From Mesotaenium endlicherianum (lineage: Eukaryota), in NCBI GenBank assembly GCA_009602735.1, contig WELA01003517.1, positions 242,900 through 306,899 on the forward strand: DNA of 64,000 nucleotides. The letters are read 5' to 3'. The notes beneath the pieces were generated by a model. The model saw nothing but the letters and a program-made list of their open reading frames with translations. It was not told the DNA's origin and did no database searches. Numbering within the stretch: the stretch's first letter is position 1; every line of letters begins with the position of its first letter. Shown here in pieces: positions 10,527 to 41,022 of the stretch. Position numbers and translations under genes: made by a program.

Positions 10527-11245
10527 TGAAATGAATCAACTTACCAATTAGGCGATTAACAATTAATAAAAATCTTCATATCAACAAGTAATCTTTATGG
10601 TATTTTTCGTTAATTGAATTAACAGCAAAGGACCACACACTAGCAGTGAATAATACTCGTAAGTCAAATGCAAGTAAACTAGCATCAATAATGCAATCAG
10701 TAAACTCATACATAAGCAAGGTTGGAAGACAGTGTGTATCAATGGCTTCTAGCATTGGATTCAGATCTCTCTCAGTAAGCTGTACAAGAGAGTTGGCCTC
10801 GTTTTCGAATGCCGAACTCGAGAGCAATGCCTAGCATATGTATAGGGAATGAGTTTACTGTTCAACGGCCAGTGCGATGGCACCGCCTACCCGAGATTTA
10901 ACCACGTTGGTAGGACCTCGGTTAACCAAATCCACCGCCATCTCCCATCATCCCGAATCGCCATCCATCATAGGAATGTCATCTGGCCATTCATCTAGCA
11001 TCCCACACTTAGATGCATATCGAGGCAGTTCGCTGCTACCGAGCACGGCAGTCAGCTGGCTGTCAAAGAATGTGTCAGCAAGCTGATTTAAGTTGGCTTC
11101 AGCCTGTTGCTTCTGTCTGAGCCCTTAAATTGATAATTATATAAACTCCAGCAGACTTAATACTACATAAAGTTCAGTAGGCTGAACTTAATTAACTATT
11201 ATATTTAAATGAATACTATATCTACTAATATACTGATTCATTACA
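10527..11245 (-). mobile_element. fam1 3' LTR (reverse), preceded on the minus strand by hairpin+PPT; probable 3' end of element A
   Basis: Reverse complement reads TGTAATGAATCAG...ATTCATTTCA and is similar to the 12146-12866 LTR. 11246-11280 is the reverse complement of GTTGTCGAGGCGACAAC...AGGTTGGAGGGAT. Confidence 0.9.
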
Positions 11246-12867: not shown

Positions 12868-12879
12868 TGGTATCGGAGC
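12868..12879 (+). promoter_or_regulatory. Primer binding site, tRNA-iMet type (TGGTATCGGAGC)
   Basis: 1 nt after the LTR end, one mismatch to canonical TGGTATCAGAGC. Also at 27792 and 41106. Confidence 0.85.
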
Positions 12880-12900
12880 AGTTATCACAGTCTTCTTTGT

Positions 12901-14379
12901 ATGGTAAGGACAAGGTCTCAAACTAGCAACTCCCGAGACATGGAGAACCAGGATAACGAGAATGTCCAAAACCAGGCGGAAAGCCATGTAGCGGGAAACC
13001 GTACCTATTCGGAAGCAGTAGCGGATACTGCAGCTAGGGAGGCTGCAGATGAGGCAGCTGCTATTGCCTCAGTCGCAGCTCAGCAAGCTGAGGAGGAGAT
13101 AGCCAGACTAGAAGCTGAACAAGTAGCAAAGGCCGCTGAAGATATACAAAGGAGGGAAGGACAGCCAGCTGACGAGCGCACTGTTGAAGAACTTATGGCA
13201 TCAAGGGCCAATGTTCTGAACCCACCTCCTGCCGTACAACTCAATGTACCCCTAGGTCAAATACGTGACCGGCTGAATGCGGCAGGAATTGCTGCTGCAG
13301 GAGCAAGAGGGATTGTTGAGGACACTACTCAGCGAGTAGATGCCAATGCTGCTGCTGCATTTGCTAATCTACCACCCCAAAATGTAGACTTGGGAGCATT
13401 GTTCGTTCAGATGCAGTCGCAAATGGCGACCATGTATCAGTCCCAGCAGGAGGACAAAAGAATCATAATGTCCCTACTCCGGGACAGAGACCAACTGGGG
13501 TCTCACACCACTAGTGGTGGTGGCCGAGGGCCTAGTAAGCCCAAGCCGAAACCTCCCCAGGACTATGATCCTGAGGGAAACAGAAAATATTACCTGATCA
13601 AGTTTCTCGCGGATGTTGAGCAGTGGCTGGAGAACTACCCAGAACTGCAAGATTACGAGAAGGTCAGGCACACCGGTGCGCTACTGAAAGGCAGTGCCGC
13701 AGACTGGTGGCTTTACTGGAAGGAAGAGCGTAAGGCTCGGCAACTCGGTGACCCTACGTGGGTAGAGTTTGTCGAGAAGTTGCATGAGAAGTTTGATGTC
13801 ATCAACCAGCAGGAGAAAGCTATCTATGCGATGATCTCCCTGACACTGAAGCAGACCACTTCAGTTGCTGAGTTTGCTCAAAAGTTCCAAGAGAACATGA
13901 TGAAGCAGCCTGATTTGCCAGAACGGTATAGGATAGCATACTTCAGGTATGGCTTGAAATCCGAGGTCTCTGGTCATTTTGCTGAGAAAAAGTATGAGAA
14001 ACTGGCTGACTTGATCCAGGATGCTGACGCCTGGGATCAGCAGCAGTTCAATCACAAGCGCCAGAGTAACGCTTTGGTGTCTAAGATTGTCAAAAAGCCC
14101 CACGGTTCCTACAATGCAGTTGAAGGAGACCAGGCTGAGGATAATCAGGGTGATGAATATGAGTATGAGTACAATGCTATTCAGTCTAGAGGTAGAGGTG
14201 GTCCCTCTCGAGGTGGCTATGGAAGGGGTGGTGGTAGGACTAAGCCGAGACCAGCCTCAGCAAAATCTACTTGCTACCATTGTCAGCAGAAAGGCCACTA
14301 CAGAGAACAGTGTCCGGTCAAGCACCTGCCTAAGGTCGAGAGAAAAGACCAGCCTTTAAAAGACAGCAACAGTCAGTAA
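12901..14379 (+). CDS. gag: Gag, 492 aa, intact
   Basis: MVRTRSQ start, retrotransposon capsid-like region (AADWW...[13 protein letters not shown]), RG-rich stretch and CCHC knuckle [14 protein letters not shown]. Confidence 0.92.
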
Positions 14380-17300
14380 TCCAGTCTACTGACTGTGAGG
14401 ATGCTAGAGATAGTGAGTCGTCACTAGCTGCCCTCGTAGCAGGTATTATGGGTCCTGCTGAACTGGATTCACTATGCATGCCTGACAACCAGATAAAGGA
14501 GACCATCAGCAATATAGACGTCCAGAGAGTGCACACTCTGGATGCTCTTGTTCCACCTGATGTCCAACATTTCTTTGCTACGTCAGGAGAACAATGCGAA
14601 AGTCAGGAAAAGACAGTCCCCCCTATCCTACTGCATTGCATGATTGCAGGTAGGAAGGTGAGGGCATTTGTTGACGGAGGGGCGTCACATACTTTTATCC
14701 ACAAGGACTTAGTTAAGCGGCTAAGGCTGCCTACTGTCACCCAAGGGAATAGAAAAATATTCCTTGGAGATGCCTCAAGTATCCCGGGAGGAGTTATAAC
14801 CAAGCCTATTGAGGTCCAGTTAGGTTCTGGCATTGCAGTTCTAACTGAAACGCTTACATTTGAGGTACTCAACACTGGCTTTTATGATCTCGTGCTAGGC
14901 AGGTCCTGGCTTAATAGACATCAAGCTGAAGTGTGTTGGAGCAGAGGTACAGTTAAAGTGAGAGGAGCCAGTGATGGGCAGACTGACTTGGCACCCACCA
15001 GTGCTCTTCCTCTTGTCCTGTGTGGATGGCAAATGAAGGAAAAGAAGAGGCTTCCAGAAGGATGCAAGTTGCTGAATGCAATGGAGTTCGTCAAAAGCTG
15101 GAACCAGAAGGAAGACAGAATGTTCTGTCTGCTGCTAAGAGAGGTACCTCCTCAACCTGAAGAAGTGGTTGAGAAAAAGGTACACCCTCCGGAACACCCT
15201 ACTGCTGCAAACATTGTTGCTCAGTACACGGATGTGTTTAATATGCCTCCAGGACTACCCCCTAAGCGGGAAGTAGATCATAGGATTGATTTATTACCTG
15301 GTAGCCAGCCACCCTGGCAACGCACGTATGGCTTGTCTTATTTGGAGAGTGAGGAGTTGAAAACACAGATTGCAGAGCTGGAGGAAAATGGTTACATTTC
15401 TCCCAGTAAATCACCGTACGGCGCACCTATCCTATTTGTTAAGAAAAAGGATGGCAGTATGCGGATGTGTGTGGATTACAGAGCCCTGAACAGAATTACA
15501 GTAAAGAACAAGTATGCTTTACCCAGAATCGAGGACTTGCTTGATACCCTGTCTGGCGCTAAGGTGTTCAGTAAGATAGATCTCAAGAGTGGTTATCATC
15601 AAATCAGAATTGCTGAGGGGGATGAACACAAGACTGCTTTCCGCACACGTTATGGACACTATGAGTTCAACGTGATGCCATTTGGACTGACTAATGCTCC
15701 TGCTACCTTTATGGGTGCTATGAATGACATTTTCAGACCTTATTTGGATAAGTTTGTGCAAGTTTTCCTGGATGATATTTTAATTTTCTCTAAAGATGAA
15801 GCTCAGCACACTGAACACTTAAAGAAAGTGCTGGACACTCTGCGGAAAAATCACTTGTATGCTAAAATGAGCAAGTGTGATTTCTTTAAGGAAAGTATTG
15901 AATTCTTAGGCCACGTTGTCAGTAAAGAGGGCATCAGTGTGGATCCTAAGAAAGTCCAGACCATAAGGGACTGGCCAGTACCACAGTCTGTCTCTGAAGT
16001 TAGATCCTTCCTCGGGTTGGCTAACTACTATAGGAGATTTATTGAGAATTATTCCACAAAGGCCAGTAAACTGACTGACCTTACTAAGAAAGACATCGGG
16101 TATGTGTGGGGGGAAGAGCAGCAGGCTGCCTTCCAGACCCTTAAAGATGCCCTTTGTTCTGCCCCAGTGCTAGCCGTGTATGACCCCAGCAAACCGGTGC
16201 AGGTGGTTACTGATGCCTCTGATTTTGCCATGGGTGCTATTTTGTTGCAGCCTGCTGACAAAACCACAAAGGATGGTAAGGTACGGCAGGAGTGGCATCC
16301 TGTGTTGTATGAGTCTATGAAATTTAATCCAGCGGAGATTAATTACTCAGTGCATGATAAAGAGCTGCTAGCTATCATTCATGTACTCAAACAGTGGAGA
16401 GCATACTTACATGGTAAAGCTTTTAAGGTGATTACAGATCATCTAGCTCTGACCCACTTTCAGAAGAAGTCCAAGCTGTCGAGGAGGGAGAACCGCTGGA
16501 GCCAGATGCTGGAGCAGTTCCAAGTCCAGATCGACTACAAACCAGGGAAGTTGAATCCTGCTGATGCACTCTCTAGAAGACCTGACTTGCAAGAAAGGAA
16601 CTTTAGTCAGCATGCTGTAGATAAAGTCCTGTGTGCACTCACTTCACTAAAGGTGAAAAAGTCCTTCCTTGAACAACTTAGGAAAGCCTACCTTTCTGAC
16701 CCAACATTTGAGCCCAGCCCCACTACTGGTATGTGTCGTGCTACCGCACTCGGGTATAAGCTCAAGGGAGGGGTCTGGGTGACTGAAACCACTTCAGGCA
16801 GGCTGAAGCTGGTCATTCCTAATAATTTGGAAATAAGGTCTCTCTTACTGAGTCAAGCTCATGACAGTCTCCTGGGTGGACATTTGGGGCAGGCCAAAAC
16901 TGTTGGCAAACTGGCAAAACATTATCATTGGGAGGGGTTACCCCGGGAGGTCTTGAAATATGTCAAGTCCTGTGACCAGTGTCAGAGAAATAAGTCTCGG
17001 CACACACCACCCGGAGGTCTCTTGCAACCGCTGCCCATCCCAGCTGGACGCTGGGAAACTATATCCATGGACTGGGTGGTCTCACTACCAAGAACTGCCA
17101 ACGGGCATGATTCAATACTGGTAGTCGTGGATAAACTGACAAAAATGGTCATTTTTATCCCCACAACTGTCAAAGTGACTGCACTCGAAACAGCGAGACA
17201 GTTTTACAACCATGTAGTATGCCAACATGGGCTCCCTTCTAATATCATCTCAGACAGAGACTCAAAATTCACCTCTAAGTTCTGGAGAGCTTTAATGGGG

Positions 17301-18164
17301 TTAATGGGAGTCAAACAGCTGCTCAGCACAGCAAACCACCCTCAGACTGATGGGCAGACTGAAAGAACTAACCGAGTTCTGCAGGAGGTGCTGAGAGCAT
17401 ATATTAACCAAAAACAAGATAATTGGGATGACCTGTTGCCTCAAATTCAGTTTGCGGTCAACAGTGCGGTGCACGCGTCAACGGGCAAGACTCCTTTTGA
17501 ACTCAGCCTGGGTAGAGTCCCTAAGTCTCCTCTAGATGTGCTAGGGGAATCTTTAACTCACCCTGAAGGGATTGACAACCCGGTCTCCCTCCAGTTAACT
17601 CAGGAGTTTGCTGACACCCTGTCAGAAGTCCAACAAAACCTGCACAAAGCCCAAGAAAACCAACAAAAATACGCTAATCAACACCGTCGGGAGCTGACAT
17701 TTTCTAAGGGCGATTTAGTCAAACTGCATTCTCAGCACCTGTACCTCCCTGGTGTGGTCAAGAAAAAGCTTGGCCCTGTCTGGGTCGGTCCATATTCGGT
17801 GGTCCGTCGTGTCGGTCAGAATGCTTACAAACTGAACATGTCAGCTGACTACAAGGGTCACCCGGTCTTTAATGTCTCCTTCCTGGAACCATACATCAAA
17901 GGTGATACACTGTTCACAGGTCGGTTACCTGTCCAACCGGGACCGGTCCCCGCTGTCCGGGACGGCGATCCTGAGGAATATGAGGTCGATGAGATTTTAG
18001 ACGCTCGCTCGGTCCGTCGATCGTCTAAATATGTCATGAAGTACCTCATCCGATGGAAGGGTTACGATGCCTCTGGGGACACTTGGGAATTTAAAGATCA
18101 GCTGACCAATGCCAAAGGGGCGTTGAAACGGTTCCACCTTCGGGCGGCTGGGGCACCTCCCTAA
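14355..18164 (+). CDS. pol: Pol (PR-RT-RNaseH-INT-chromodomain), intact, in -1 frame relative to gag
   Basis: [36 protein letters not shown]; RNase H VTDASD; INT H-H-C-C (HDSLLGGH...CDQC), core [18 protein letters not shown] motif; chromodomain YEVDEILD...YLIRWKGY...DTWE retaining the aromatic-cage residues (group I type). Confidence 0.95.
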
Positions 18165-18488
18165 CAGTCATTTCAGTTGACACGGGAAGGTGACAGGAGG
18201 TCCTGTCTCCATATAAGTTGGAGGGGGATGTGACAGTTAGTGACAGTTGTGACAGGCAGCCCACCTTTAAAATTAAGTTGGAGGGAGTGGTATTCTCTGA
18301 TCACCATATTACACACTCAACCTGCGCTCACACTCACTTGCTCTCTAACTCAATTTTCCCTTATATTCACTCACACCAGGTATTCCACACTAGGAACTCT
18401 CCCGATCGCGTTCCTCTTCATCAAGGGCACTCAGTAGCGGCAAAATATCATGACTTCACTAACTGCATTGTGTTTATGATTGAGCAGG

Positions 18489-20155
18489 ATGACTCAAAAG
18501 TCGGAACTCAAGAGGAAGAGAAGGGCGGAAGAGGCACATGCAGAATACTTGCAATTCCGTGGAGACATCGAATCATCTTCCATCTCCGCTCGGGAATCAC
18601 AACGACTCCAACAACAGCGGGAGGCACAGAAGAAGAAGGAGGAGGAGGAACAGGCCAGACTGAGGCAGGAAGAAATGGACAGAAAAGCTGCAGAGGAGGC
18701 CAAGAAAGCAGAGGAGGAGAGGCAAGCTGAGGAGAAGCGGAAGCAGCAGGCTGAAGAAGAAGAACAGAGGAGAATCAGCAGCTACCGCTACACGGTGCTG
18801 GGCAAGGGCTTTGATCTACTGGAGGAGGCCTTCAAGTATGCCCAGAGAAGTCGCAGTGAGTCGCAGAAGGAAATCCTCCAGAAGGAAGGGGAGACATCCG
18901 AAAACTTTGACAAGTATATAGAGGTCGGCACAGGGCTCCTCCTCTACCACGATTACGCCAGGATGGTAGGATATACCATCGGAGAGGCCAAGGCAATGGC
19001 CCAGGTGAACGAAGCAGGAGCTGTCTCGATTCCTGGTATCTGGGGGGCAGATAGGGTCATCAGGATGATCCCCATGGACGCGGACAGCTTCAAGGACTCA
19101 ACACCCCACAACAGGTTCAAGGCCATGTACAATGAGGTGGAGAGGAGGAGCTGGGAATTCTTGGCCAGAGAAACCAGTCAGCTGGACTTTGCAGGGCACT
19201 GGTACCCTTGTACTCTCAAAAAGACAGACGCTGCCTTCTTCCAAAAGCCCACTGATTGGCGGTGGATGACCATCAACATGAGGGACCAGCAGAATGACAG
19301 GGCGACGGATGAGGATTTCCTGACAGACCTAAAGGGGAACATAGTATTGCCCCCTCACATTGCGGCTTGGGACCCAAGATTGGATGGAGTCAGAGACTGC
19401 ATGAGCCAAGAGATGCAGGGGGACAGAAGCAGGGCCCGAGAGTCATTCTCCAAAGGGAAGCACGCTTATGCCAAATGGGCAAGTAAGCAGGGGGAAAAGG
19501 ACCTCTATGCGGTCCGGACTCAGCAGCCCCCACCAGCACCCAAAAGGGGAAGGTCAGTAGGATATTCTTTTTCTCGGGAAGAGCTGGAGCAGCGGACAGA
19601 GGAGACCCCAGAAGTCTCAGAGGAACTCGGGGACAACGAGGAGGCGGAGTCGGAGGAAGACGAGGAGGAAGGCGAGGAGGAGGACACTAGCCCCGCCGTG
19701 ATCCTGACACCTGCCTCATCCCCTGTAAGGGAGAAGCGGGGTGGGCCCCGCCGCAACCCGCTCAAGAGGAGGATATCACTTGGCTGGGGACTGCCAGAGG
19801 ACAGAGCCCATCTCCAGGCAAGGAGACCCAGTCGGACAGGGCAGAGAGGAGGGCTGCTCGGGAAATAGCCAGAGGCCTGCCAGCATCTCCCTCGCAGAGA
19901 GGGCATGTACCCTTGGCTCATGTCATGCAACATCCTTCTGGGATGCCGGTATACGTACCTGTCAGTTTGAGGGCTGCCCAGGAGAAGGCTGCCTCCCTTC
20001 AGTTTCAGACTGTGCAGGAGGAAACAGCCCAGTTACTACGTTCTCCGCCGGGTCCTTACACGGAACCCCCTTCTCTGACAGGCTTCAAAAGACCCCAAGA
20101 CAGGAGGAGGTCTGGCTCCCCTGAGCATAGGGCCTCAGGGATATCTCCCTCCTAA
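18489..20155 (+). CDS. ORF3 type I, accessory protein of unknown function (~555 aa consensus; 1-nt frameshift near 19737 in this copy)
   Basis: ATG at 18489. Homologous frames in copies C (34669-36330) and D, and a diverged paralog at 24307. Copy C reads through the region where B is shifted. Confidence 0.85.
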
Positions 20156-20204
20156 GGGCAGCAGGCTGGGGATAAGAGGGACAGCACGCTGTTACTAGTG
20201 ATAG

Positions 20205-20240
20205 TGTTGTCGAGGCGACAACATGATAAGTTGGAGGGAT
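20205..20240 (+). promoter_or_regulatory. Terminal hairpin (TGTTGTCG-AGG-CGACAACA) plus polypurine tract (AAGTTGGAGGGAT)
   Basis: Directly precedes the 3' LTR TG. Related modules sit before the LTRs at 11245, 36450 and 48627. Confidence 0.85.
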
Positions 20241-23200
20241 TGTAATGAATCAGTATATTGGTCGATATGATATTCATTTAAATAATATAGTTATATAAGT
20301 TCAGCCTGCTGGACTCTAGTTAATAATCAGTCTGCTGGACTTTATACTTAATATCAATTTAATGACTTGGCCGCAAGTAGCAGGCTGAGGCCACCTTAAG
20401 TCAGCTTGCTGACACATTCTTTGACAGCCAGCTGACTTCCGTACTCGGTAGCAGCGAACTGCCTCAATATGCATCTAAGTGTGGTATGCTAGATGAATGG
20501 CCACATGACATCCCTATGATGGATGGCTATTCGGGATGATGGGAGATGGCAGTGGATTTGGTTAACTGAGGTCCTACCAACGTGGTTAACTCCCGGGTAG
20601 GCGGTGCCATCGCACTGACCGTTGAACAGTAAACTCATTCCATGTACATACGCTAGGCATTGCTCTCGAGTTCGGCATTCGGAAACGAGGCCAACTCTCT
20701 TGTACAGCTTACTGAGAGAGATCTGAATCCAAGGCGAGAAGCCATTGATACGCACTGTCTTCTAACCTTGCTTATGTATGAGTTTACTGATTTGCATTAT
20801 TGATGCTAGTTTACTCTCATTTGACTGACGAGTATTATTCACTGCTGGTGCGTTGTCCTTTTGCCGTTAAACAGTTAACAGAAAGTACCATAAAGATTAC
20901 TCGCTGATATAAAGATCTTTATTAATTGTTAATCGCCTATTTGGTAAGTCGATTCATTTTANNNNNNTAACTGGCCAGTACCACAGTCTGTCTCTGAAGT
21001 TAGATCCTTCCTCGGGTTGGCTAACTACTATGGGAGATTTATTGAGAACTATTCTACAAAGGCCAGTAAAGTGATTGACCTTACTAAGAAAGACATAGGG
21101 TATGTGTGGGGGGAAGAGCAGCAGGCTGCCTTCCAGACCCTTAAAGATGCTCTTTGTTCTGCCCCAGTGCTAGCCGTGTATGACCCCAGCAAACCGGTGC
21201 AGGTGGTTACTGATGCCTCTGACTTTGCCATGGGTGCTATTTTGTTGCAGCCTGCTGACAAAACCACAAAGGATGGTAAGGTACGGCAGGAGTGGCATCC
21301 TGTGTTGTACGAGTCTATGAAATTTAATCCAGCGGAGATTAATTACTCAGTGCATGATAAAGAGCTGCTAGCTATCATTCATGTGCTCAAACAGCGAAGA
21401 GCATACTTACATGGTAAGGCCTTTAAGGTGATTACAGATCATCTAGCTCTGACTCACTTTCAAAAGAAGTCCAAGCTATCGAGGAGGGAGAATCGCTGGA
21501 GCCAGATGCTGGAGCAGTTCCAAGTCCAAATCGACTACAAACCAGGGAAGTTGAATCCTGCTGATGCACTCTCTAGAAGACCTGACTTGCAAGAAAGGAA
21601 CTTTAGTCAGCATGCTGTATATAAAGTCTTGTGGGCACTCTCTTCACTAAAGGTGAAAAAGTCCTTCCTTGAACAACTTAGGAAAGCCTACCTTTCTGAC
21701 CCAACATTTGAGCCCAGCCCCACTACTGGTGTGTGTCGTGCTACTACACTCCGGTATAAACTTAAGGGAGGGGTCTGGGTGACTGAAACCACTTCAGGCA
21801 GGCTGAAGCTGGTCATTCCTAATAACGTGGTAATAAGGTCCCTTTTATTGAGTCAAGCACATGACAATCTACTGGGTGGGCTTTTGAGGCAGGCCAAAAC
21901 TGTTGGCAAACTGGTAAAACATTATCATTGGGAGGGATTACCTCGGGAGGTCTTGAAATACGTTAAGTCTCGTGACCAATGTCAAAAGAATAAGTCTAGC
22001 CACACATCACCCGGGGGCCACTTACAATCGCTGCCCATCCCAGCTGGCCGCTGGGAAACAATATCAATGGACTGGGTGGTCACACTGCCACGAACTGCCA
22101 ATGGGCATGATTCGATTCTTGTAGTCGTGGATAAACCGACAAAAATGGTCATTTTTATCCCCACAACTGTCAAAGTAACTGCACTCGAAACAGCGAGACA
22201 GTTCTACAAGCATGTAGTATGCCACCATGGGCTACCCTCTATTATAATCTCAGACAGAGACTCAAAATTTACCTCTAAGTTCTGGAGGGCTTAATGGGGT
22301 TAATGGGAGTCAAACAGCTGCTCAGCATAGCAAACCATCCTCAGATTGATGGGCAGACTGAAAGAACTAATTGAGTTCTTCAAGAGGTACTGAGAGCCTA
22401 TATTAACCAAAAACAAGATAATTGGGATGACCTGTTACCCCAAATCCAATTTGCGGTCGACATGTGCAGTGCACGCGTCAACGGGCAAGACTCCTTTTGA
22501 ACTAAGCCTGGGTAGAGTCCCTAAGTCTCCTTTAGATATCCTAGGGGAGTCTTTAACTCACCCTGAAGGGATTGACAATCCGGTCTCCCTCCAGTTAACT
22601 CAGGAGTTTGCTGACACCCTGTCAGAATTCCAGCAGAACTTGCACAAAGCCCAAGAAAACCAATAAAAGTACGCTAATCAGCACCGTCGAGAACTGACCT
22701 TTTCTAAGGGCAATTTGGTCAAACTGCATTCTCAGCACCTGTACCTCCCTGGTGTGTTCAAGAAAAAGCTTGGTCCTGTCTGGGTCGGTTCATATTCAGT
22801 GATGGGCCGTGTCGGTCAGAACGCTTACGAACTAAACATGTCAGCAGAATACAAGGGTCACCCGGTCTTTAATGTTTCCTTCCTTGAACCCTACATCAAA
22901 GGGGACACAGTGTTCACAGGTCGGTTACCTGTCCAACCGAGACCGGTCCCCGCTGTCCGGGATGGTGACCCTGAGGAATATGAGGTTGAGGAGATTTTAG
23001 ACGCGCGCTCGGGCCGTCGACCGTCTAAATATGTCATGAAGTACCTCATTCGATGGAAGGGTTACGATGCCTCTGGGGACACTTGGGAATTTAAGGACCA
23101 TTTGACCAATGCCAAAGGGGCGTTGAAACGGTTCCACCTTCGGGCGGCTGGAGCCCCTCCATAACTGTCATTTCAGTTGACACGGGAAGGTGACAGGCGG

Positions 23201-23559
23201 TCCTGTCTCCATTTAAGTTGGAGGGGAAAATATATGACAGTTAGTGTGCGAGAGCGAGAAAGGGACAGTCATGTGAACCCTAAGTGTCAGCATAGTGACA
23301 GATGGGACAGCCTGGCCCACATAAAGCACCTTGGGCAGAAGGAAAAAGGGCCTCGCACAGCAATACATCACTTAGCGCACCTTAAAATACATTCATACGT
23401 TTATGTCTACGGACCGCAACTACGTCAACTCTTAGCAATCACCCGGTAAGGTAAACAGAGGCGAATCCACCATACTAATACGAACATACTTCGTGCCTGC
23501 AATTCCTATGACAAAGGTCGATATCCTACTAACTTGTACCCTGGTTACATGTGCAGGAT

Positions 23560-24303
23560 TGAAAGGGGCAGAGTGCCCTAGTGGAAGCGTAGTGACTCGC
23601 GAGGAAAGAAACTAGTTGCAATCATACTAAAGAGTGCAGCGGCATATTGCTAAGAAAGCTTAGGAAAATTACTTGACATTTTGAGTGGCAAGAAACTGCT
23701 CACAAATGGTTTGGTATGAAAGGCCTTGTCATTACAAACCCGTAGAAATTTACAGAAGTGAAAACTGATCAGAATTGAAGAAGTTATGCCTATTTATAAT
23801 TTTCTGCCTAAGTGCTCCTCTCTAGGAGGAAGCTACGGATTTTCCCAAGTGTTCGTCAAATCGTCCCTTCCAGAATATTCGTGAGTAAGCCAGATCAGTC
23901 TAATCTGACATGTCGAGCCGAATTGACGTCCACATACATGCATCGACATTACTAGAATATTCTATCTTAGACGCGCTAGGCTAAACCGAAACTTCTAGGT
24001 AAATCGACCTAATCGGCACTCCGCGTCAGCCGAACTTACGTGAAGGTTCGAGTTCATTCTAACGGGCCAGATCGCTCGACGCTGTCGGGCAATCCGACGG
24101 TCGCGCTCACCGCAAATTAAAAACAGTCGTTAACCGACCTCATAACTAACTAAACTTCAAAAATCCATAACTCTCTCAATACTTGACCAAATTCGATGAA
24201 TTTTATATCAAAATGACCACAAAAATGCACTCTACACGACTATACAATCAAAACATACTTTCATGAAACTCAAAAGTGCACTTTATAAACCTATGACCTT
24301 ACG
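23560..24303 (-). mobile_element. fam2 solo LTR (reverse)
   Basis: Reverse complement matches the LTRs of element E (TGTAAGGTCATAGG...CCCCTTTCA). TSD AGGAT at 23555-23559 and 24304-24308. Confidence 0.92.
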
Positions 24304-24306
24304 AGG

Positions 24307-25819
24307 ATGGCTCCCACCACACAAAAGGAGGACAGAAAGCGCAAGGCAGAAGAAGCCAGGAGGACAATGGAGCAATACCAGAAGGAGTTGGCGGCGACGT
24401 CCCTCACCAGGAGAGAACAAGAAAGGGTCCGCAGACAACAAGAGGCGGCAAAAGAAGCACAGAGGAAGAAGGATCAGGAAGCGAAAAACCTCAGGAAAGC
24501 TGAGGAGGAGAGACAGAAGAAACAACAAGAAGAAGCGGCAGCGGCAGAGGAGGAGAGAAGGAAAAAGGCTGAAGCGGACAGGCAGAAGAGCTTGGCCACT
24601 TACAGGTACACTGTGGTGGGTGGCCAAAACTTTGATAACCTGAAGGAAGCATTGCTGGCAGCCCAGGAGATCAACAAGCTGGAACAGACAACACTGCTAC
24701 AGAGGGAAGGAGCTGCAGCACTGGATAGGTACATCGAGACACACACGGGTGTGGTCCTCTACGAAGATTATGCCAAGATGGTGGGCTACACAGCAAAGCA
24801 GGCCCGGTACTTTGCCGATGATTTAGAGGAAGAGCCAGTCCCAATACCGGGAATAGTGGGAGATCAAAGACTCATCAGGATGGTGAGCATGCAGCCCGAT
24901 AGCTTTAAGGATACGATATTCTACCTCACACTACTGCCAGCTTACAATGAAGTTGAGAGAAGGAGCTGGGAGTACTTGGCCAGGGAAGCAGGACAGCAGA
25001 TGTTCTCTCCCCACTGGTTCCCATGTAAACTGAGGAAGGCTGAGCATGGACCCCGGTACTACCAGCAGCCAACAGACTGGAGGTGGATGACCGTCACAAA
25101 CAAAAAGCAGGAGTGTGACCGAGCCCAACCGGATGACTTCCACAATGGCCTAGACGGCTACCTCACCCTACCACCTCACATTGCCCCTTGGGACCCAAGG
25201 CTGAATGGCCGCCTAAGCGATATGAATGCAGAGACCAAAGAGCACAGGAGGAGGGGGAGAGACTACTTCTCTAAGGGAAAGCATGCTTTTGTCAAAAAGG
25301 CGAAGAATGCAGGCCGGATAGATATCAGCAGGCTGAAGGCCAAGCAACCTCCGGCGCGCCCTAAGAAAGGGAGGTCAGTAGACTACTCCATGTCCACCAG
25401 AGAGCAGGACGACTTAGTGGACGAGACTCCTACCCTCTCAGAGGAGGAAGATGAGGAGGATGAGGGAGAAGAACAAGGCAGAGGAGAAACATCAGAACCT
25501 GGTTCTCAGGACACCCAGGGGCAGGCGAGAGCAGGGCTTCCTCAGGAGCCAAGATCAGGAATATGGCATCTGACCCCGATCGTGGAGGTAACCGAACCGC
25601 GCACTCGCTCCCCCAGCCCACCTGCCCAAGCAGGGGAAGAAGCTGATCTGACTGTACTTGGCAGCATACAAAGGCAAAAATCCCCAGAGGATAGGAGAGC
25701 CAGAAGAGGAACACGCGGGGTGGCCAGAGGTATGCCGACCTCTCCCTTCGCTCAGGGGCATGTACCTCTTGCCAATGTATTTCAGCACCCTACTGGAATG
25801 CCTGTCTATGTGGGGATCA
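24307..25819 (+). CDS. ORF3 type II (diverged paralog), truncated at the inversion breakpoint
   Basis: About 500 open codons. Shares YRYTV, LY.DYA.MVGYT, DSFKD, YNEVERRSWE.LARE, PTDWRWMT, LPPHIA.WDPRL.G, FSKGKHA and GHVPLA.V.QHP.GMPVYV with type I. Confidence 0.85.
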
Positions 25820-25844
25820 AGTATGCTTGTAACTGTTCAATTGT

Positions 25845-27124
25845 TAGTCCTGGAGGCATATTAAATACATCCGTGTACTGAGCAACGATTTTTGCAGCAG
25901 TAGGGTGCTCCGGAGGACTTACCTTTTTCTCAACCACTTCTTCAAGTTGAGGAGGTACGTCTCTTAGCAGCAGACAGAACATTCTGTCTTCCTTCTGGTT
26001 CCAGCTTTTGAAGAACTCCATTGCATTCAGCAACTTGCATCCTTCTGGAAACCTCTTCTTTTCTTTCATTTGCCATCCACACAGGACAAGAGGAATAGCA
26101 CTGGTGGGTGCCAAGTCAGTCTGCCCATCACTGGCTCCTCTTACTTTAACTGTACCTCTGCTCTAACACACTTCAGCTTGATGTCTATTAAGCCAGGACC
26201 TGCCAGCACGAGATCATAAAAGCCAGTGTTGAGTACCTCAAATGTAAGCGTTTCAGTTGGAATTGCAATGCCAGAACCTAATTGGACCTCAATAAGCTTG
26301 GTTATAACTCCTCCCGGGATACTTGAGGCATCTCCAAGGAATATTTTTCTATTCCCTTGGGTGACAGTAGGCAGCCTTAGCCGCTTCACTAAGTCCTTGT
26401 GGATCAAAGTATGTGACGCCCCTCCGTCAACAAATGCCCTCACCTTCCTACCTGCAATCATGCAATGCAGTAGGATAAGGGGGACTGTCTTTTCCTGACT
26501 TTCGCATTATTCTCCTGACTTAGCAAAGAAATGTTGGACATCAGGTGGAACAAGAGCATCCAGAGTGTGCACTCTCTGGACGTCTATATTGCTGATGGTC
26601 TCCTTTATCTGGTTGTCAGGCATGCATAGTGAATCCAGTTCAGCAGGACCCATAATACCTGCTACGAGGGCAGCTAGTGACGACTCATTATCTGTAGCAT
26701 CCTCACAGTCAGTAGACTGGATTACTGACTGTTGCTGTCTTTTAAAGGCTGGTCTTTTCTCTCGACCTTTGGGAGGTGCTTGGCTGGACACTGCTCTTTG
26801 AAGTGACCCGTCTGCTGGCAATAGAAGCAAATCGATTTTGCTGAGGCTGGTCTCGGCTTAGTCCTACCACCACCGCTTCCAAAGCTGCCTCGAGAGAAAC
26901 CACCTCTACCTCTAGACTGTATAGCATTATACTCATACCCATATTCATCACCCTGATCATCCTCAGCCTGGTCTCCTTCAATTGCATTGTAGGAATTGTG
27001 GGGCTTTTTGACAACCTTCGACACCAAAGCATTACTCTGGCGCTTGTGATGAACTGCTGCTCATCCCAGGCATTAGCATCCTGGATCAAGTCAGCCAGTT
27101 TCTCATACTTCTTCTCAGCAAAAT
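25845..27124 (-). pseudogene. Element A gag 3' end plus protease region (reverse, decayed)
   Basis: Minus-strand ORFs match B gag end (CFYCQQTGHFKEQC) and PR (VDGGAS). Confidence 0.9.
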
Positions 27125-30100
27125 AAGTTCAGCCTGCTGAACTCTAGTTAACAATCAGTCTGCTGGACTTTATATTTAATATCTGTTTAATGACTCAGGC
27201 CGGAAGTAGCAGGCTGATGTCAGCTTAAGTCAGCTTGCTGACACATTCTTTGACAGCCAGCTGACTTCCGTACTCGGTAGCAGCGAATTGCCTCGATATG
27301 CATCTAAGTGTGGTATACTAGATGAATGGCCAGATGACATCCCTATGATGGATGGCGATTCGGGATGATGGAAGATGGCGGTGGATTTGGTTAACCGAGG
27401 TCCTACCAACAAGGTTAACTCCCGGGTAGGCGGTGCCATCGCACTGACCGTTGAACAGTAAACTCATTCCATGTACATATGCTAGGCATTGCTCTCGAGT
27501 TCGGCATTTGGAAACGAGGCCAACTCTCTTGTACAGCTTACTAAGAGGGATCAGAATCCAAGGCGAGAAGCCATTGATACGCACTGTCTTCTAACCTTGC
27601 TTATGTATGAGTATACTGATTTGGATTATTGATGCTAGTTTACTCGCATTTGACTTACGAGTATTATTCCCTGCTAGTGTGTTGTCCTTTGCCGTTTAAC
27701 CAGTTAACGGAAAATATCATAAAGATTACTTGCTGGTATAAAGATCTTTATTAATTGTTAATCTCCTATTTGGTAAGTTGATTCATTTCAGTGGTATCGG
27801 AGCAGTTATTACAGTCTTCTTTGTATGGTAAGGACAAGGTCTCAAACTAGCAACTCCCAAGACATGGAGAACCAAGATAACGAAAATGTCGAAAACCAGG
27901 CGGAAAGCCACGTAGCGGGAACCCGTACCTATTCTGAAGCAGTGGCAGATACTGCAGCTAGAGAGGCTGCAGATGAGGCAGCTGCTATTGCCGCAGTCAC
28001 AGCACAGCAAGCTGAGGAGGAGAGAGCCAGATTAGAAGCTAGATTAGATTAGCAAAGGCCGCTGAAGATACAGAAAGAAGGGAAGGACAGCCAGCTGACG
28101 AGCGCACTGTTGAAGAACTTATGGCATCAAGGGCCAATGTTTTGAACCCACCTCCTGCTGTACAACTCAATGTACCCCTATGTCAAATACGTGACCGACT
28201 GAATGCGGCAGGACTTGCTGCTGCAGGAGCGAGAGGGACTGTTGAGGACACTACTTAGCGAGTAGATGCCAATGCTGCTGCTGCATTTGCTTGACAACCA
28301 CCCCAGAGTGTAGACTTGGGAGCATTGTTCGTTCAAATGCAGTCGCAAATGGCGACCATGTATCAGTCCCAACAGGAGGACAAAAGAATCATAATGTCTC
28401 TACTGCGGGACAGAGACCAACTGGGGTCTCAAACCACTAGTGGTGGTGGCCGAGGGCCTACTAAGCCCAAGCCGAAACCTCCCCAAGAATATGATCCTGA
28501 GGGAAATAGAAAATACTACTTGATCAAGTTTCTCGCTAATGTTGAGCAGGGGCTGGAGAACTATCCGAAACTGCAAGATTACGAGAAGGTCAGGCACACC
28601 GGTGCGCTACTGAAAGGCGGTGCCGCAGACTGGTGGCTTTCCTGGAAAGGAGAGCGTAAGGCTCGGCAACTCGGTGACCCTACGTGGGTAGAGTTTGTTG
28701 AGAAGTTGCATGAGAAGTTTGATGTCATCAACCAGCAGGAGAAAGCTATCTATGCGATGATCTTCCTGACAGTGCAGCAGACCGCTTCAGTTGCTGAGTT
28801 TGCTCAAAAGTTCCAGGAGAACATGATGAAGCAGCCAGACTTGCCAGAACGGTATAGGATAGCATACTTCAGGTATGGCTTGAAATCCGAAGTCTCTGGT
28901 CATTTCGTTGAGAAGAAGTATGAGAAACTGGCTGACTTGATCCAGGATGCTGACGCCTAGGATCAGCAGCAGTTCAATCACAAGCGCCAGAGTAATGCTT
29001 TCGTGTCTAAGATTGTCAAAAAGCCCCACGATTCCTACAATGCAATTGAAAGAGAACAGACTGAGGATGATCAGGGTGATGGCTATGAGTATGAGTATAA
29101 TGCCATACAGTCTAGAGGTAGAGGTGGCTTCCCTCGAGGCGGCTATGGAAGAGGTGGTGGTAGGACTAAGCCGAGACCAGCCTCAGCAAAATCCACTTGC
29201 TTCCATTGCCAGCAGCCAAGTCACTTCAGAGAACAGTGTCCAGTCAAGCACCTCCCAAAAGTCGAGAGAAAAGACCAGCCTTTAAAAGACAGCAACAATC
29301 AGTAATCCAGTCTACTGACTGTGAGGATGCTAGAGATAGTGAGTCGTCACTAGCTGCCCCCGTAGCAGGTATTATGGGTCCTGCTGATCTGGATTCACTA
29401 TGCATGCCTAACAACCAGATAAAGGAGACCATCAGCAATATAGACATCCAGAGAGTGCAAACTCTGGATGCTCTTGTTCCACCTGATGTCCAACATTTCT
29501 TTGCTAAGTCAAGAGAACAATGCGAAAGTCAGGAAAAGACAGTCCCCCCTATCCTACTGCATTGCATGATTGCAGGTAGGAAGGTGAGGGCATTTGTTGA
29601 CGGAGGGGCGTCACATACTTTTATCCACAAGGACTTAGTTAAGCGGCTAAGGCTGCCTACTGTCACCCAAGGGAATAGAAAAATATTCCTTGGAGATGCC
29701 TCAAGTATCCCGGGAGGAGTTATAACCAAGCCTATTGAGGTCCAGTTAGGTTATGGCATTGCAATTCTAACTGAAACGCTTACATTTGAGGTACTCAACA
29801 CTGGCTTTTATGATCTCGTGCTGGGCAGGTCCTGGCTTAATAGACATCAAGCTGAAGTGTGTTGGAGCAGAGGTACAGTTAAAGTAAGAGGAGCCAGTGA
29901 TGGGCAGACTGACTTGGCACCCACCAGTGCTCTTCCTCTTGTCCTGTGTGGATGGCAAATGAAGGAAAAGAAGAGGCTTCCAGAAGGATGCAAGTTGCTG
30001 AATGCAATGGAGTTCGTCAAAAGCTGGAACCAGAAGGAAGACAGAATGTTCTGTCTGCTGCTAAGAGAGGTACCTCCTCAACCTGAAGAAGTGGTTGAGA

Positions 30101-33100
30101 AATAGGTAAGCCCACCGGAGCACCCTACTGCTGCAAAAATTGTTGCTCAGTACACTGATGTATTTAATATGCCTCCAGGACTACCTCCTAAGAGGGAAGT
30201 AGATCATTGGATTGATTAATTACCTGGTAGTCAGCCACCTTGGCAACGCACTTATGGCTTGTCTTATGTGGAGAGCGAGGAGTTGAAAACACAGATTGCA
30301 GAGCTTGAGGAAAATGGTCATATTTCCCCCAGTAAGTCACCTTACGGCGCACCCATTTTATTTGTTTAGAAAAAGGATGGCAGTATGCGGATGTGTGTGG
30401 ACTACAGAGTCCTGAACAGAATTACGGTAAAGAACAAGTATTTTTTACCCAGAATCGAGGACTTGCTTGATACCCTGTCTGGTGCTAAGGTGTTCAGTAA
30501 GATAGATCTCAAGAGTGGTTATCATCAAATCAGAATTGCTGAAGGGGATGAACACAAGACTGCCTTCCGCACACGTTACGGACATTATGAGTTCAACGTG
30601 ATGCCATTCGGACTGACTAATGCTCCCGCAACATTTATGGGTGCTATGAATGACATTTTCAGGCCTTATTTGGATAAATTTGTGCAGGTTTTCCTGGATG
30701 ATATTTTAATTTTCTCTAAAGATGAGACTCAGCACGCTAAACACTTAAAGACAGTTATATGCTAAAATGAGGAAGTGTGATTTCTTTAAGGAAAGTATTG
30801 AATTTTTAGGCCACGTTGTCAGTAAAGAGGGCATCAGTGTGGACCCTAAGAAAGTCCAGACCATAAAGGACTGGCCAGTACCACAGAGTGTCTCTGAAGT
30901 TAGATCCTTCCTCGGGTTGGCTAACTACTATAGGAGATTTATTGAGAATTATTCCACAAAGGCCAGTAAACTGACTGACCTTACTAAGAAAGACATAGGG
31001 TATGTGTGGGGGGAAGAGCAACAGGCTGCCTTCCAGACCCTTAAAGATGCCCTTTGTTCTGCCCCAGTGCTAGCCGTGTATGACCCCAGCAAACCGGTGC
31101 AGGTGGTCACTGATGCCTCTGACTTTGCCATGGGTGCTATTTTGTTGCAGCCTGCTGACAAAACCACAAAGGATGGTAAGGTACGGCAGGAGTGGCATCC
31201 TGTGTTTTACGAATCTATGAAATTTAATCCAGCGGAGATTAATTACTCAGTGCATGATAAAGAGCTGCTAGCTATCATTCATGTGCTCAAACAGCGGAGA
31301 GCATACTTACATGGTAAGGCCTTTAAGGTGATTACAGATCATCTAGCTCTGACTCACTTTCAGAAGAAGTCCAAGCTGTCGAGGAGGGAGAACCGCTGGA
31401 GCCAGATGCTGGAGCAATTCCAAGTCCAAATTGACTACAAACCAGGGAAGTTGAATCCTGCTGATGCACTCTCTAGAAGACTTGACTTGCAAGAAAGGAA
31501 CTTTAGTCAGCATGGTGTAGATAAAGTCCTGTGTGCACTCACTTTACTAAAGGTGAAAAAGTCCTTCCTTGAACAACTTAGGAAAGCCTACCTTTCGGAC
31601 CCAACATTTGAGCCCAGCCCCACTACTGGTGTGTGTCGTGCTACTACACTCAGGTATAAACTTAAGGGAGGGGTCTGGGTGACTGAAACCACTTCAGGCA
31701 GGCTGAAGCTGGTCATTCCTAATAACTTGGAAATAAATTTTCTTTTATTGAGTCAAGCACATGACAGTGTACTGGGTGGGCATTTGGGGCAGGCCAAAAC
31801 TGTTGGCAAACTGGCAAAACATTATCATTGGGAAGGGTTGCCCCAGGAGGTCTTGAAATATGTGCAGTCCTGTGATCAGTGTCAAAGAAATAAGTCTAGT
31901 CACACACCACCGGGAGGTCTCTTGCAATCGCTGCCCATCCCAGCGGGACGCTGGGAAACTATATGCATGGACTGGGTGGTCACACTGCCACGAACGGCTA
32001 ATGGGCATGATTCGATACTAGTAGTCGTGGATAAACTAACGAAAATGGTCATTTTCATCCCCACAACTGTCAAAGTAACTGCACTCGAAACAGCGAGACA
32101 GTTCTACAACCATGTAGTATGCCAACATGGGCTACCCTCTAATATCATCCAAGACCGAGACTCAAAATTTACCTCTAAGTTCAAGAGAGCTTTAATGGGA
32201 TTAATGGGAGTCAAACAGCTGCTCAGCACAGCAAACCACCCTCAAACTGATGGGCAGACTGAAAGAACTAACCGATATCTGCAGGAGGTCCTGAGAGCAT
32301 ATATTAACCAAAAACAAGATAATTGGGATGACCTGTTGCCTCAAATTCAGTTTGCAGTCAACAATGCGGTGCACGCGTCAACGGGCAAGACTCCTTTTGA
32401 ACTCAGCCTCGGTAGAGCCCCTAAGTCTCCTTTAGATGTACTGGGGGAGTCTTTAACTGACCCAGAAGGGATTGACAACCCGGTCTCCCTCCAGTTAACT
32501 CAGGAGTTTGCTGACACCCTGTCAGAAGTCCAACAAAACGTGCACAAAGCCCAAGAAAACCAACAAAAATACGCTAATCAACACCGTCGGTGTAATGTAT
32601 CAGTTCATTATTTATTTAATAAATTGCATATATAAATATAACACTAAATAAGTATTATGTCTATATACTCACATGTGCGAGTTCATCTAAATGAATGTAT
32701 GTCGATGTAATGCGAGTTTACTTACTTTGTCAAAAAGGTCAGCAGAATGACTTTTGTACCATAGTGTGGTTTGCTGACATTGTTGAAAAGGTCAGCAGGA
32801 TGACTTTTTTATCATAGTATAGTTTGCTGAGATTTATATATCAGTTATATACAGGATATAATATCAGTAGGTTGACATATAGTAAGCTCGCTTGATATTA
32901 GTCAACATACTTAGCTTCAGTACGCTGAGGATACACATATTCATTTAGATTGTTATTTGTAGATTGGCACATGTGACCGTAGTATACTGAAAGTCGGGAG
33001 GTCGACTGAGATTTGGTAAACCAATGTCCTACCAGTGTGATTAACTCCTGGGTAGGCGGAGCCGTCGTCAGTCAACTGAACAGTTAGGACTTCAGTCAAC

Positions 33101-36100
33101 CGACCAATTAATATGGTCGTTATACCTAGATCCGTGGGTCCCAACTTAACGGGTTTCCCACGAAACGGCGCACCTTGCGCCGTGGTCAACCAGGTGGTCA
33201 CTAGGTACATAGCAGGCTGGGATCTCGTGGTCGCTCATTCTGGACAGTAGGCTTTACAGTCGGATTTCTACTTGCAAGTCATGTGTGCACTTTTGGGTTC
33301 GTTCTAATGACCAGCCTTCACAGAAATTAACATGGTTGCTTTGTCTGCGCTCCAAATGGGACGAACTAGGACTTTTCGGAAAGGTCTCGTCAAGATGCAT
33401 CCGTTGCCGTTAAGTTTGAAGTAGTATTGGCAGAGTTATGCCCTCTGACATTTCGGGGTCACACAGCGGACAGATTCCATGGTTTTGCACCTAAGTCAGT
33501 GGGATGTGATTTAGCTACATTATGGTCATCTGAATGAGAGCGCCTTTGCAATTCAGTCCCCTGATGTTGTGCATGTGCTATACATGCTTGCATGCTTGGT
33601 AGGCAAGAGGCCATGAGTTTCTAAAGGAGAAGCTCTACTCCTCAAGCTCGCCTCTTTCTTGTGCCTTGTATTCGCGTGCAACTATGGCACACTACGATGA
33701 GCGAATCAAGGGTTATAGATGAGTAAACGGAATTCATTATAAGGGCGAAGATCGCTCCCTGATTTCACACGCTTCCACCTATCTCTGATCTTTTATATTT
33801 AAATGAAATATATTAATCTTGAATAAGCAAGATTCATTTCAGTCAGGAGCTGACTTTTTCTAAGGGCGATTTAGTCAAACTGCATTCTTAGCACCTGTAC
33901 CTCCCTGGTGTGGTCAAGAAGAAGCTTGGCCCTGTCTGGGTCGGTCCATATTCGGTAGTGCGTCGTGTCGGTCGAAATGCTTACAAACTGAACATGTCAG
34001 CGAACTACAAGGGTCACCAGGTCTTTAATGTCTCCTTCCTGGAACCATACACCAAAGGTGATACACTGTTCACAGGTCGGTTACCTGTCCAAACGGGACC
34101 GGTCCCCGCTGTCGGGACGGCGACCCTGACGAATATGAGGTCAATGAGATTTTAGACGCTCGCTCGGTCCGTCAATCGTCTAAATATGTCATGAAGTACC
34201 TCATCCGATGGAAGGGTTACGATGCCTCTGAGGATACTTGGGAATTTAAGGACCAGCTGACCAATGCCAAAGGGGCGTTGAAACGGTTCCACCTTTGGGA
34301 GGCTGGGGCACCGCCCAAACTGTCACTTCAGTAGACATTGGAAGGTGACAGGAGGTCCTGTCTCCATATAAGTTGGAGGGGGATGTGACAGTTAGTGACA
34401 GTTGTGACAGGCAGCCCACCTTTAGACTTAAGTTGGAGGGAGTGGTATTCTGTTTCGGGATCAGCCGGAAAATCTCTGATAACCATATTACACACTCAAC
34501 CTGCGCTCACACTCACTTTCTCAACAAACTCAATCTTTCCCTTATATTCACACACACCAGGTATTTCACACTAGGAACTCTCTCGAGCGCGTTCCTCTTC
34601 ATCAAGGGTACTCGGTAGCGAAAAATATCATGGATTCACTGACTGCATTGTGTTTATGATTGAGCAGGATGACTCAAAAGTTGGAACTCAAGAGTAAGAG
34701 AAGGGCGAAAGAGGCACATGCAGAATACTTGCAATTCCGTGGAGACATCGAATCATCCTCCATCTCCGCTCGGGAATCACAACGACTCCAACAACAGCGG
34801 GAGGCACAGAAGAAGAAGGAGGAGGAGGAACAGGTCAGACTGAGGCAGGAAGAACTAGACAGAAAAGCTGCAGAGGAGGCCAAGAAAGCAGAGGAGGAGA
34901 GGCAAGCTGAGGAGAAGCGGAAGCAGCAGGCTGAAGAAGAGCAGAGGAGAATCAGCAGCTACCGCTATACAGTACTGGGCAAGAGCTTCAATCTACTAGA
35001 GGAGGCCTTCAAGTATGCTCAGAGAAGTCGCAGTGAGTCACAGAAGGACATCCTTCAGAAGGAAGGGGAGACATCCGAACACTTTGACAAGTATATAGAG
35101 GTCAGCACGGGGCTCCTCCTCTACCACGATTACGCCAGGATGGTAGGATATACGATCAGGGAGGCCAAGGCAATGGCCCAGGTGAACGAAGCAGGGGCTG
35201 TATCGATTCTTGGTTTTTGGGGGGAAGGTAGGGTCATCAGAATGATCCCCATGGACGCGGACAGCTTTAAGGACTCTACACCCCATAACCGGTTCAAGGC
35301 CATGTATAATGAGGTGGAGAGGAGAAGCTGGGAATTCTTGGCCAGGGAAACCAGTCAGCTAGACTTTGCAGGGCACTGGTACTCTTGTACTCTTAAAAGG
35401 ACAGAACCTGCCTTCTTCCAGAAGCCCACCAATTGGCGGTGGATGACCATCAACATGAGGGACCAGCAGAATGACAGGGCGATGGATGAGGATTTCCTGA
35501 CAGACCTAAAGGGGAACATAGTATTGCCCCCTCACATTGCGGCTTGGGACCCATGATTGGATGGAGTCACAGACTGCATGAGCCAAGAAATGCAGGGGGA
35601 CAGAAGCAGGGCCCGAGAGTCATTCTCAAAAGGGAAGCACGCTTATGCCAAATGGGCAAGGAAGCAGGGGGAAAAGGACCTGTATGCGGTCCGGACTCAG
35701 CAGTCCCCAGCACCCAAAAGGGGAAGGTCAGTGGGATATTCTTTTTCTCAGGAAGAGCTAGAACAGCTGACAGAAGAGACCCCAGAAGTCTCAGAGGAAC
35801 CCGGGGACGGAGAGGAGGAGGAGTCTGAGGAAGACGAGGAGGAAGGCGAGGAGGAGGACACTAGCCCCGCCGTGATCCTGACACCTGCCACATCCCCTGT
35901 AAGGGAGAAGACGGGGTTGGCCCTGCAGCAACTCGCTGAAGAGGAGGATATCACTTGGCTGGGAACTGCCAGAGGACAGAGCCCATCTCCAGGCACGGAG
36001 ACCCAGTCAGACAGGGCAGACAGGAGGGCTGCTAGAGAAATAGCCAGAGGCCTGCCGGCATCTCCCTCGCAAAGAGGGCATGTACCCTTAGCTCATGTTA

Positions 36101-40470: not shown

Positions 40471-41022
40471 TGAAAGGGGCAGAGTACCCTAGTGGAAGCG
40501 TAGTAACTCACGAGGAAAGGAACTAGTTGCAATCATACTAAAGAGTGCAGCGGCATATCACTAGGAAAGCCTATGAAAATTACTCAACATTTTGAGTAGC
40601 AAGAAATTGCTCACAAATGATGTAGGATGAAAGGCCTTGTCATTACAAACTCGTAGAAATTTACAGAAGTAAAAAGTCCCAAGAAATGAAGTAGTTATGT
40701 CTATTTATAGTTTTCTACGACGGCCGCTCGCCCCTAGGCGAGAGGGCCGCTTAGCAACGGATTTTCCTAAGTGTTCGTCAAATCGTCCCTTCCAAAATAT
40801 TTGTGAGTAAGCCAGATCAGTCTCATCTGACGTGTTGGACCAAATTGACGTCCACATACATGCATCGACATTACTAGAATGTTCTATCTTAGACACGTGA
40901 GGCTAAACCGAAACTTCTTGGTAAATCGACCTAGTCGGCACTCCGCGTCAGCCGAACTTACGTGAAGGTTCGAGTTCACTCTAAAGGGCCAGATCGCTCG
41001 ACGCTGTCGGTCAATTCGACGC
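40471..41022 (-). mobile_element. fam2 LTR fragment (reverse, truncated)
   Basis: Collinear with the left ~540 bp of the 23560-24303 solo LTR. Confidence 0.88.

Follow-up and report, generated by a model that had tools for sequence, protein, structure and literature searches.

How can copies of one retrotransposon family be highly similar up to the end of pol and only distantly similar in the gene that follows? The question is raised by a dense long terminal repeat (LTR) retrotransposon cluster that adjoins an AAA+ host gene on contig WELA01003517.1 of the Mesotaenium endlicherianum assembly GCA_009602735.1 (positions 242,900 to 306,899, forward strand; these 64,000 nucleotides are referred to here as the window, and coordinates count from its first letter). 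The main family of the cluster, family X, carries an additional open reading frame (ORF3) in sense orientation behind pol, which is of type I in copies A, C and D and of type II in copy B. An initial annotation, made from the letters alone, had described near-identical pol genes followed by two very different ORF3 types, and had attributed them to modular exchange at an internal polypurine tract (PPT) under conflict between host and element. The explanation that we favor, and consider likely, is that a single chromovirus family carries two deeply diverged modules, each consisting of a leader and ORF3, on a gag-pol-LTR backbone that is 89–95% identical, and that this arrangement arose via template switching by reverse transcriptase (RT) in homologous flanks.

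The similarity break behind pol

Family X is a Ty3/gypsy chromovirus. Pfam profiles identified a gag with capsid and zinc knuckle and, in the pol of copy A, the order protease, RT, RNase H and integrase (PR-RT-RH-INT), onto which copy B maps collinearly. A chromodomain (PF00385) at the integrase C-terminus scores above the cutoff in the A pol (E 8e-9) and is present in B too, and the RT-RH region has its best matches among Ty3/gypsy proteins from plants and green algae (at most 61% over the full region). Copy A (12146-20959, plus strand) is a full-length type I element nested in the pol of B, with LTRs that are 97.1% identical, a primer-binding site (PBS) at 12867, a PPT at 20228 and a 5-bp target-site duplication (TSD). 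LTRs of the family begin with TG and end with CA, and its PBS is presumably of the tRNA-Met kind. Copies C (27121-37167) and D (41024-49345) are the other type I members. The ORF3 of A (18489-20155, plus strand) shifts frame near 19750, with its tail in another frame, that of C (34669-36330, plus strand) contains one internal stop, and that of D (46770-48257, plus strand) is decayed. The type II ORF3 of B (24307-25820, plus strand) comprises 504 codons without a stop and is truncated at its 3' end.

The right-hand part of the B pol (20970-23164, plus strand) encodes the end of RT, RNase H, integrase and chromodomain, as assigned through the intact A pol, and is decayed by two stops and two frameshifts. 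Alignment of B 20970-23246 with A 15970-18242 gave 92.9% identity over 2278 nt, and identity in 200-nt windows stays at 87.5–99% up to 23170 and then drops to 54–64%. Unbroken similarity stops at 23226, the point at which about 93% identity gives way to about 60%, and a weak tail runs on to 23246. Both measures agree with the initial annotation, which had placed the collapse at about 23225 in B and about 18226 in A; its high similarity of the pol genes stands, but 'near-identical' overstates an actual 92–94%. Pol identity to A is 93.7% for B and 91.9% for the type I copy D. The break coincides with a block consisting of a hairpin and a PPT-like motif (23190-23226, plus strand; the motif itself lies at 23215 in B and 18215 in A), which forms the left border of the variable module.

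Behind this border, types I and II have 170 of 392 amino acids in common (43%, BLASTP; 133 of 268 in the core) and about 65% of their nucleotides, in line with the roughly 45% that had been estimated by eye for the cores; identity ranges from 33 to 60% and is spread evenly along the protein. Synonymous divergence (dS) of pol is 0.237 (0.195-0.295) for A/B, which lies between the values for the type I pairs A/C (0.150) and A/D (0.260), and that of type I ORF3 pairs (0.163 and 0.297) tracks that of their own pol; therefore, ORF3 is not fast by itself. Between the two types, the proportion of synonymous differences (pS) is 0.735 and dS is saturated, with a lower bound of 1.5, and 17 of 49 four-fold sites are equal, compared with 270 of 320 in pol. 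Ratios of nonsynonymous to synonymous divergence (dN/dS) are 0.12–0.19 for pol and 0.14–0.21 for ORF3, and both ORF3 types are under purifying selection. Because saturation of silent sites is limited to one block and is impossible to achieve via selection on a protein, the history of the module must be much older than that of its flanks. The claim of one chassis with two exchangeable ORF3 modules is borne out by the contrast between the pol dS of 0.237 and the saturated ORF3, and by gag-PR (95%) and LTR (89–91%) similarities that lie within family X. It is extremely improbable that recombination was absent and that ORF3 changed where it stands, through fast adaptive evolution next to a conserved pol. 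Accessory ORFs of plant LTR elements are described as highly heterogeneous in the part of PMC6317226 that was available, which would suit such a history, but it is already contradicted by saturated synonymous sites at a dN/dS of 0.14: protein selection can neither saturate silent sites nor erase a non-coding leader beside a pol with a dS of 0.24. Positive selection as the cause of ORF3 divergence was ruled out on the same two grounds, the saturated silent sites and the low dN/dS.

The type II leader (23227-23559, plus strand) contains GTGACAG repeats, a branch-point-like CTAAC (23529-33) and an acceptor-like AG (23555-56), and contig 11 of run X13 covers 23384-23554 and continues into ORF3. 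In B, a solo LTR (23560-24303, 744 bp, minus strand) follows the leader; it belongs to another chromovirus family, Y, and is a secondary insertion: it matches the LTRs at 40471, 50798 and 54285 at 84–89%, it is flanked by a 5-bp TSD (23555-59/24304-08) at the acceptor and start codon, and the insertion-free joint 23554->24304 was found in contigs of three of four runs (seven in X1, one each in X13 and X20). The sole TSD-bounded insert in this stretch is this solo LTR, rather than an independent insertion that would bring type II with an LTR and TSD of its own. A type-specific leader of 1.1 kb was ruled out, since 744 bp of it are the Y solo LTR; the true leaders measure about 260 nt in type I and about 330 nt in type II. 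The leaders had been described as unrelated, which is correct beyond the first 25 nt (score 21, reached by 116 of 300 shuffles) but not for a common block of GTGACAG repeats (score 36, reached by none of 300 shuffles). Persistence of the acceptor was confirmed: CTAAC and a CAG directly before the start occur in both ORF3 types, and the acceptor-like motif is kept in A, B and C and altered in D.

In type I leaders, the PPT-like motif is followed 60 nt later by another one (18227-18296; also 34430 and 46527), which is absent from type II; the first motif is followed by a TG-initial GTGACAG repeat resembling an old LTR start. The Y LTR sequence at 23560-24303 is far deeper than the flanking element in run X20, and in run X21 it is covered by polyA reads in both orientations, along with loose ends that lead into other sequence; apparently, some copies of the Y LTR are transcribed. 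Low-depth joints in X1 tie Y LTR ends to other places in type II ORF3 (24302, 25461 and 25604), which may point to additional, independent insertions of Y into type II copies.

Copy B and further type II copies

Copy A is inserted in the pol of B. The same five letters flank it on both sides (TSD 12141-45/20970-74), and this site occurs once in intact pol. The left part of the B pol (11433-12145, plus strand), split by A from the part that begins at 20970, consists of a piece of the protease linker and of RT, the latter at 11673-12145; it was assigned by the TSD and by the matching position in pol. It follows from the nesting that B is older than A. It also follows that the gap of six Ns at 20962-67, at the apparent start of B, is no chimeric join and that the B pol is continuous across it; a chimera at this gap was ruled out by the flanking TSD of A. 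An assembly artefact in which contigs of two repeats were joined, either across the N gap or at the PPT, is very unlikely. The gap and the dense repeat cluster could suggest such a join, but the TSD of A's insertion flanks the gap, no gap separates pol from ORF3-II, and leader and ORF3 are continuous in contigs of three runs.

ORF3-II is cut at 25820 by a rearrangement, behind which, after a filler (25821-25844) at the right breakpoint of an apparent inversion, a minus-strand fragment of family X begins. This fragment (25845-27124), the end of gag and protease, matches A and C at 95.2% and D at 92.7%, and it likely represents element B's 5' half, still in the orientation that it had at first. 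A probable relic of the type II 3' end lies on the minus strand at 11246-11412 and consists, in order, of a segment that matches ORF3-II 25798-25820 at 22 of 23 positions, a stray LTR end of 39 bp, a segment of 68 nt that resembles no type I 3' region, and the 39-nt hairpin+PPT block shared by both types. Behind the relic stands a family X LTR (10526-11245, minus strand), which matches the five other family X LTRs compared at 89.4–90.6%; the LTR of copy D is likewise 89.4–90.6% identical to type I LTRs. Two contigs of run X13 extend past 25820, and their loose end closes with the same six letters with which the 68-nt segment opens. The interval 10526-11412 is probably the 3' end of B with a family X LTR, and the simplest reading would be a single type II element on the minus strand in which the middle part has been inverted, each breakpoint being marked by a short duplication. 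The fillers at the two breakpoints of this apparent inversion (11413-11432 and 25821-25844) have short words in common, with each other and with nearby pol, as is seen in templated-insertion repair.

Type II is multicopy rather than a one-off. In run X1, all 46 contigs at 25219 and all 14 at 24811 carry, at full depth, a letter other than that of B. Among the contigs of run X13 is one of 1037 nt with type II sequence, in which 55 of 752 letters deviate from B, the same distance as that of the X13 pol contigs (19 of 222 and 20 of 277), and run X20 also contains type II pieces. In X1, X13 and X20, the depths summed over ORF3-II and over pol are of similar magnitude, depth being distinct from copy number. 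Of 94 X13 records, 10 match in part; by our own count, the listed loose ends (nine records) and the joint (one) account for all ten, and none of them has foreign sequence ahead of the type II leader.

Module borders and a probable exchange

In a protein tree with six outgroups (without clade labels), the pol sequences of A–D form one clade with support of 100/100. The incongruence between pol and ORF3 is one of distance, not of topology. The divergence specific to one segment, with sharp borders, is that of a recombinant LTR subfamily. Type-diagnostic sites were not found in pol: the informative sites of B are common with D (25), C (12) and A (9), and all 21 pol contig rows among the matches listed, a selected subset, carry the letter of A. 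Within 22579-23050, 13 of 14 informative pol sites pair A with C and B with D, and pol upstream is mixed; the backbone may thus be a mosaic in this interval.

A hairpin and a purine tract stand directly after the pol stop in all of A–D; in A and in the type II relic, they recur ahead of the 3' LTR, such that the module is bordered by the block after pol and by the 39-nt block before the LTR. Family Y, which is without ORF3, has a single hairpin+PPT block right after pol. The position of the module between two copies of a 3' signal suggests that it may have been acquired with a duplication of that signal. Under the favored explanation, two lineages would have diverged long ago, and their backbones would later have been replaced or homogenised by copy-choice recombination, when RT switched templates between co-packaged RNAs within homologous flanks. 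Template switching requires homology between donor and acceptor, as the available text of PMC6894440 describes; therefore, crossovers between types I and II would be confined to the flanks, and the module, too diverged at about 65% nucleotide identity for internal recombination, would move as a block. The end of homology in turn explains the sharp border, and no special role of the PPT is needed. Of the proposed modular exchange at the internal PPT, the exchange is thus retained and the PPT as its driver is not, the breakpoint being the end of homology; judged from the sequence, a role of the PPT in exchange is possible, and the host-conflict story is a hypothesis.

In its full form, that hypothesis states that conflict between host and element keeps both types and that the internal PPT promotes exchange through a second priming of the plus strand and strand displacement, which we regard as unlikely. 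Both borders do coincide with hairpin+PPT blocks, both types are under purifying selection with type II being multicopy, and the type II copy B is older at this locus than the type I copy A, which is compatible with turnover. Nevertheless, any homology-driven switch places its borders at the last homologous bases, similarity trails 20 nt beyond the PPT, and the dN/dS of 0.14–0.21 and the even divergence along ORF3 also argue against conflict. This reading adds to template switching in homologous flanks more than it competes with it. An extension that we hold to be similarly doubtful is a balanced accessory locus with two alleles, bounded by the duplicated hairpin+PPT blocks, in which an anti-silencing or regulatory family with type-specific targets would be reshuffled repeatedly onto one chassis, like env swapping without an envelope.

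Several observations weigh against the favored explanation. The pol sequences of A–D form a star-like polytomy, and a clade of type I copies only was not rejected with these four copies (p-AU, approximately unbiased test, 0.111). The window contains no type II copy besides B, which is broken at its two ends, so that the sole type II copy seen directly with pol and LTR is rearranged; its relic is scrambled and bears the stray LTR-end fragment, and its link to an LTR consists of the match of 22 of 23 letters, the six-letter overlap and the inversion model. No listed contig joins pol to the type II leader or spans 23226 with 31 letters on each side, and contig depth dips over 23238-23505. The summed depths are not copy numbers, and run X1 may be the source of the assembly. 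One polyA RNA run, of which about 6% was read, gave no reads on ORF3-II 24310-25381, and the role of ORF3 is a guess from composition and analogy. Some of these points would favor assigning type II to a sister family that is separate and has a pol and LTR of its own, with B as a rare recombinant or product of rearrangement. We consider this improbable: all pieces of gag-PR, RT, integrase and LTR attributable to B are of family X, the partly matching X13 records hold no other sequence ahead of the type II leader, and the hairpin+PPT blocks are common to both types at both borders.

The ORF3 protein and its counterparts

Both ORF3 types encode a charged N-terminal part (helix-rich in type II), a conserved core of about 270 amino acids with 91 columns invariant in the four copies, an acidic tract and, close to the C-terminus, a short motif that is conserved, and basic clusters occur at matching places in the two types. 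No transmembrane segment was found in the four frames, in which the highest Kyte-Doolittle 19-mer scores 0.63–0.96, the type II frame of B lacking its last residues; an envelope was ruled out on this ground, although ORF3 does occupy the sense position between pol and the 3' LTR. Neither type has a Pfam match at the cutoff (two sub-cutoff matches with E 0.02–0.07 were rejected) or a match to the profiles of Transposase_28, plant mobile domain, Athila ORF1, AlkB, GDSL or DEDDy. Likewise, no homologue was found for ORF3-II in a set of 5.8 billion proteins, for the four-row ORF3 alignment among the longer proteins of that set, among 1.84 billion representatives (no match at E 0.001) or in the ESM Atlas. 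In metagenome contigs, none of 83 pattern matches was confirmed, and a comparison with PDB sequences gave one match only (E 0.31). AlphaFold2 on the four ORF3 sequences produced an unusable model (pLDDT, the predicted form of the local distance difference test, 33.5). The conserved acceptor makes it rather probable that ORF3 is made from a spliced subgenomic RNA. By analogy, ORF3 could tentatively be a soluble, probably nuclear protein that regulates how the element itself is expressed or silenced, rather than an envelope. Regulatory or silencing roles have been proposed for other extra ORFs, according to the accessible parts of PMC11728184, PMC9289625 and PMC11963269, and in that of PMC7264820, what extra ORFs do in plant LTR retrotransposons is called an open question.

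As described in the accessible part of PMC6317226, plant chromoviruses (clades Chlamyvir, Tcn1, Galadriel, Tekay, Reina and CRM) resemble family X in their gag, in the order PR-RT-RH-INT-chromodomain, in their TG..CA LTRs and in their 5-bp TSD. Family X differs from them by a sense ORF of 1.4–1.6 kb between pol and the 3' LTR; the extra ORFs of chromoviruses are described as 5' of gag in the portion of PMC11728184 that was available. In position and orientation, ORF3 corresponds to the env-like 3' ORFs of Athila, Bagy-2 and SIRE (PMC7264820 and PMC6317226, in part), with which it also has in common an orphan protein and heterogeneity within a lineage (19 groups in SIRE); the Bagy-2 ORF is spliced, with an acceptor before it, and ORF3 is likewise preceded by an acceptor-like motif. 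In contrast to these ORFs, ORF3 has neither a transmembrane segment nor a Pfam match, and it occurs as two homologous, saturated versions on a backbone of about 93% identity within one family. Swapping of env in retroviruses and endogenous retroviruses is similar in that gag-pol is kept and the third gene is exchanged in one block, and template switching has been proposed for it (available text of PMC10536682), but ORF3 is no envelope, and a function in receptor use or host range is not implied for it. Subfamilies of the grass centromeric retrotransposons (CR) are a further parallel, being chromoviruses that exchange segments and whose recombinants amplify, with co-packaging and template switching as the proposed route; in the accessible portion of PMC4079200, these exchanges concern LTRs, untranslated regions and parts of the polyprotein, and no accessory gene. 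The ORF3s of LTR elements in bdelloid rotifers are varied, non-envelope, modular and expressed from spliced messages, but they are unrelated, family-specific acquisitions with known folds, so far as the available text of PMC5408684 goes, whereas types I and II are homologous alternatives in one family.

No report of family X, or of a 3' accessory gene with two types within a chromovirus family, was found in the literature; the supplements of PMC6317226, which give extra ORFs by clade and lay outside the search, may hold chromovirus 3' ORFs. The finding is real and better supported than the initial annotation could show, and it is another form of a known module swapping, which limits the surprise. 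It places a 3' sense accessory gene in a chromovirus. Moreover, two long-diverged, conserved versions of an orphan ORF on a near-identical backbone amount to a natural controlled comparison, in which the functional core is marked by the conserved residues of ORF3, and the two types can be compared in copy number and age with the chassis held constant.

Other elements of the window have histories of their own. The integrase of copy C is interrupted by a 1252-bp insert (32591-33842) with LTR-like ends that resemble the termini of family X and a near-perfect 5-bp TSD; one 75-nt block is about 80% like the LTR of X, and a third, related family probably left this insert as a solo LTR. The family Y chromovirus at 50798-55026 (plus strand) has LTRs that are 90.9% identical, a pol with a large internal deletion and no ORF3, its PPT following directly after the chromodomain. 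In the interval 40471-41105, the final 80 nt of the 5' LTR of copy D adjoin a truncated Y LTR, to which they are directly fused. Decayed minus-strand fragments of retroelements from other families occupy 49571-50555 and 55028-60900, with an RT match at 49574-50104 and weak protease matches near 58000-59100. The intron-rich AAA+ host gene beside the cluster (about 150-7605, minus strand), identified by a match to the AAA profile, is one that we take to be Clp-type, and GC content changes from about 0.6 to 0.42 across the boundary between this gene and the cluster.

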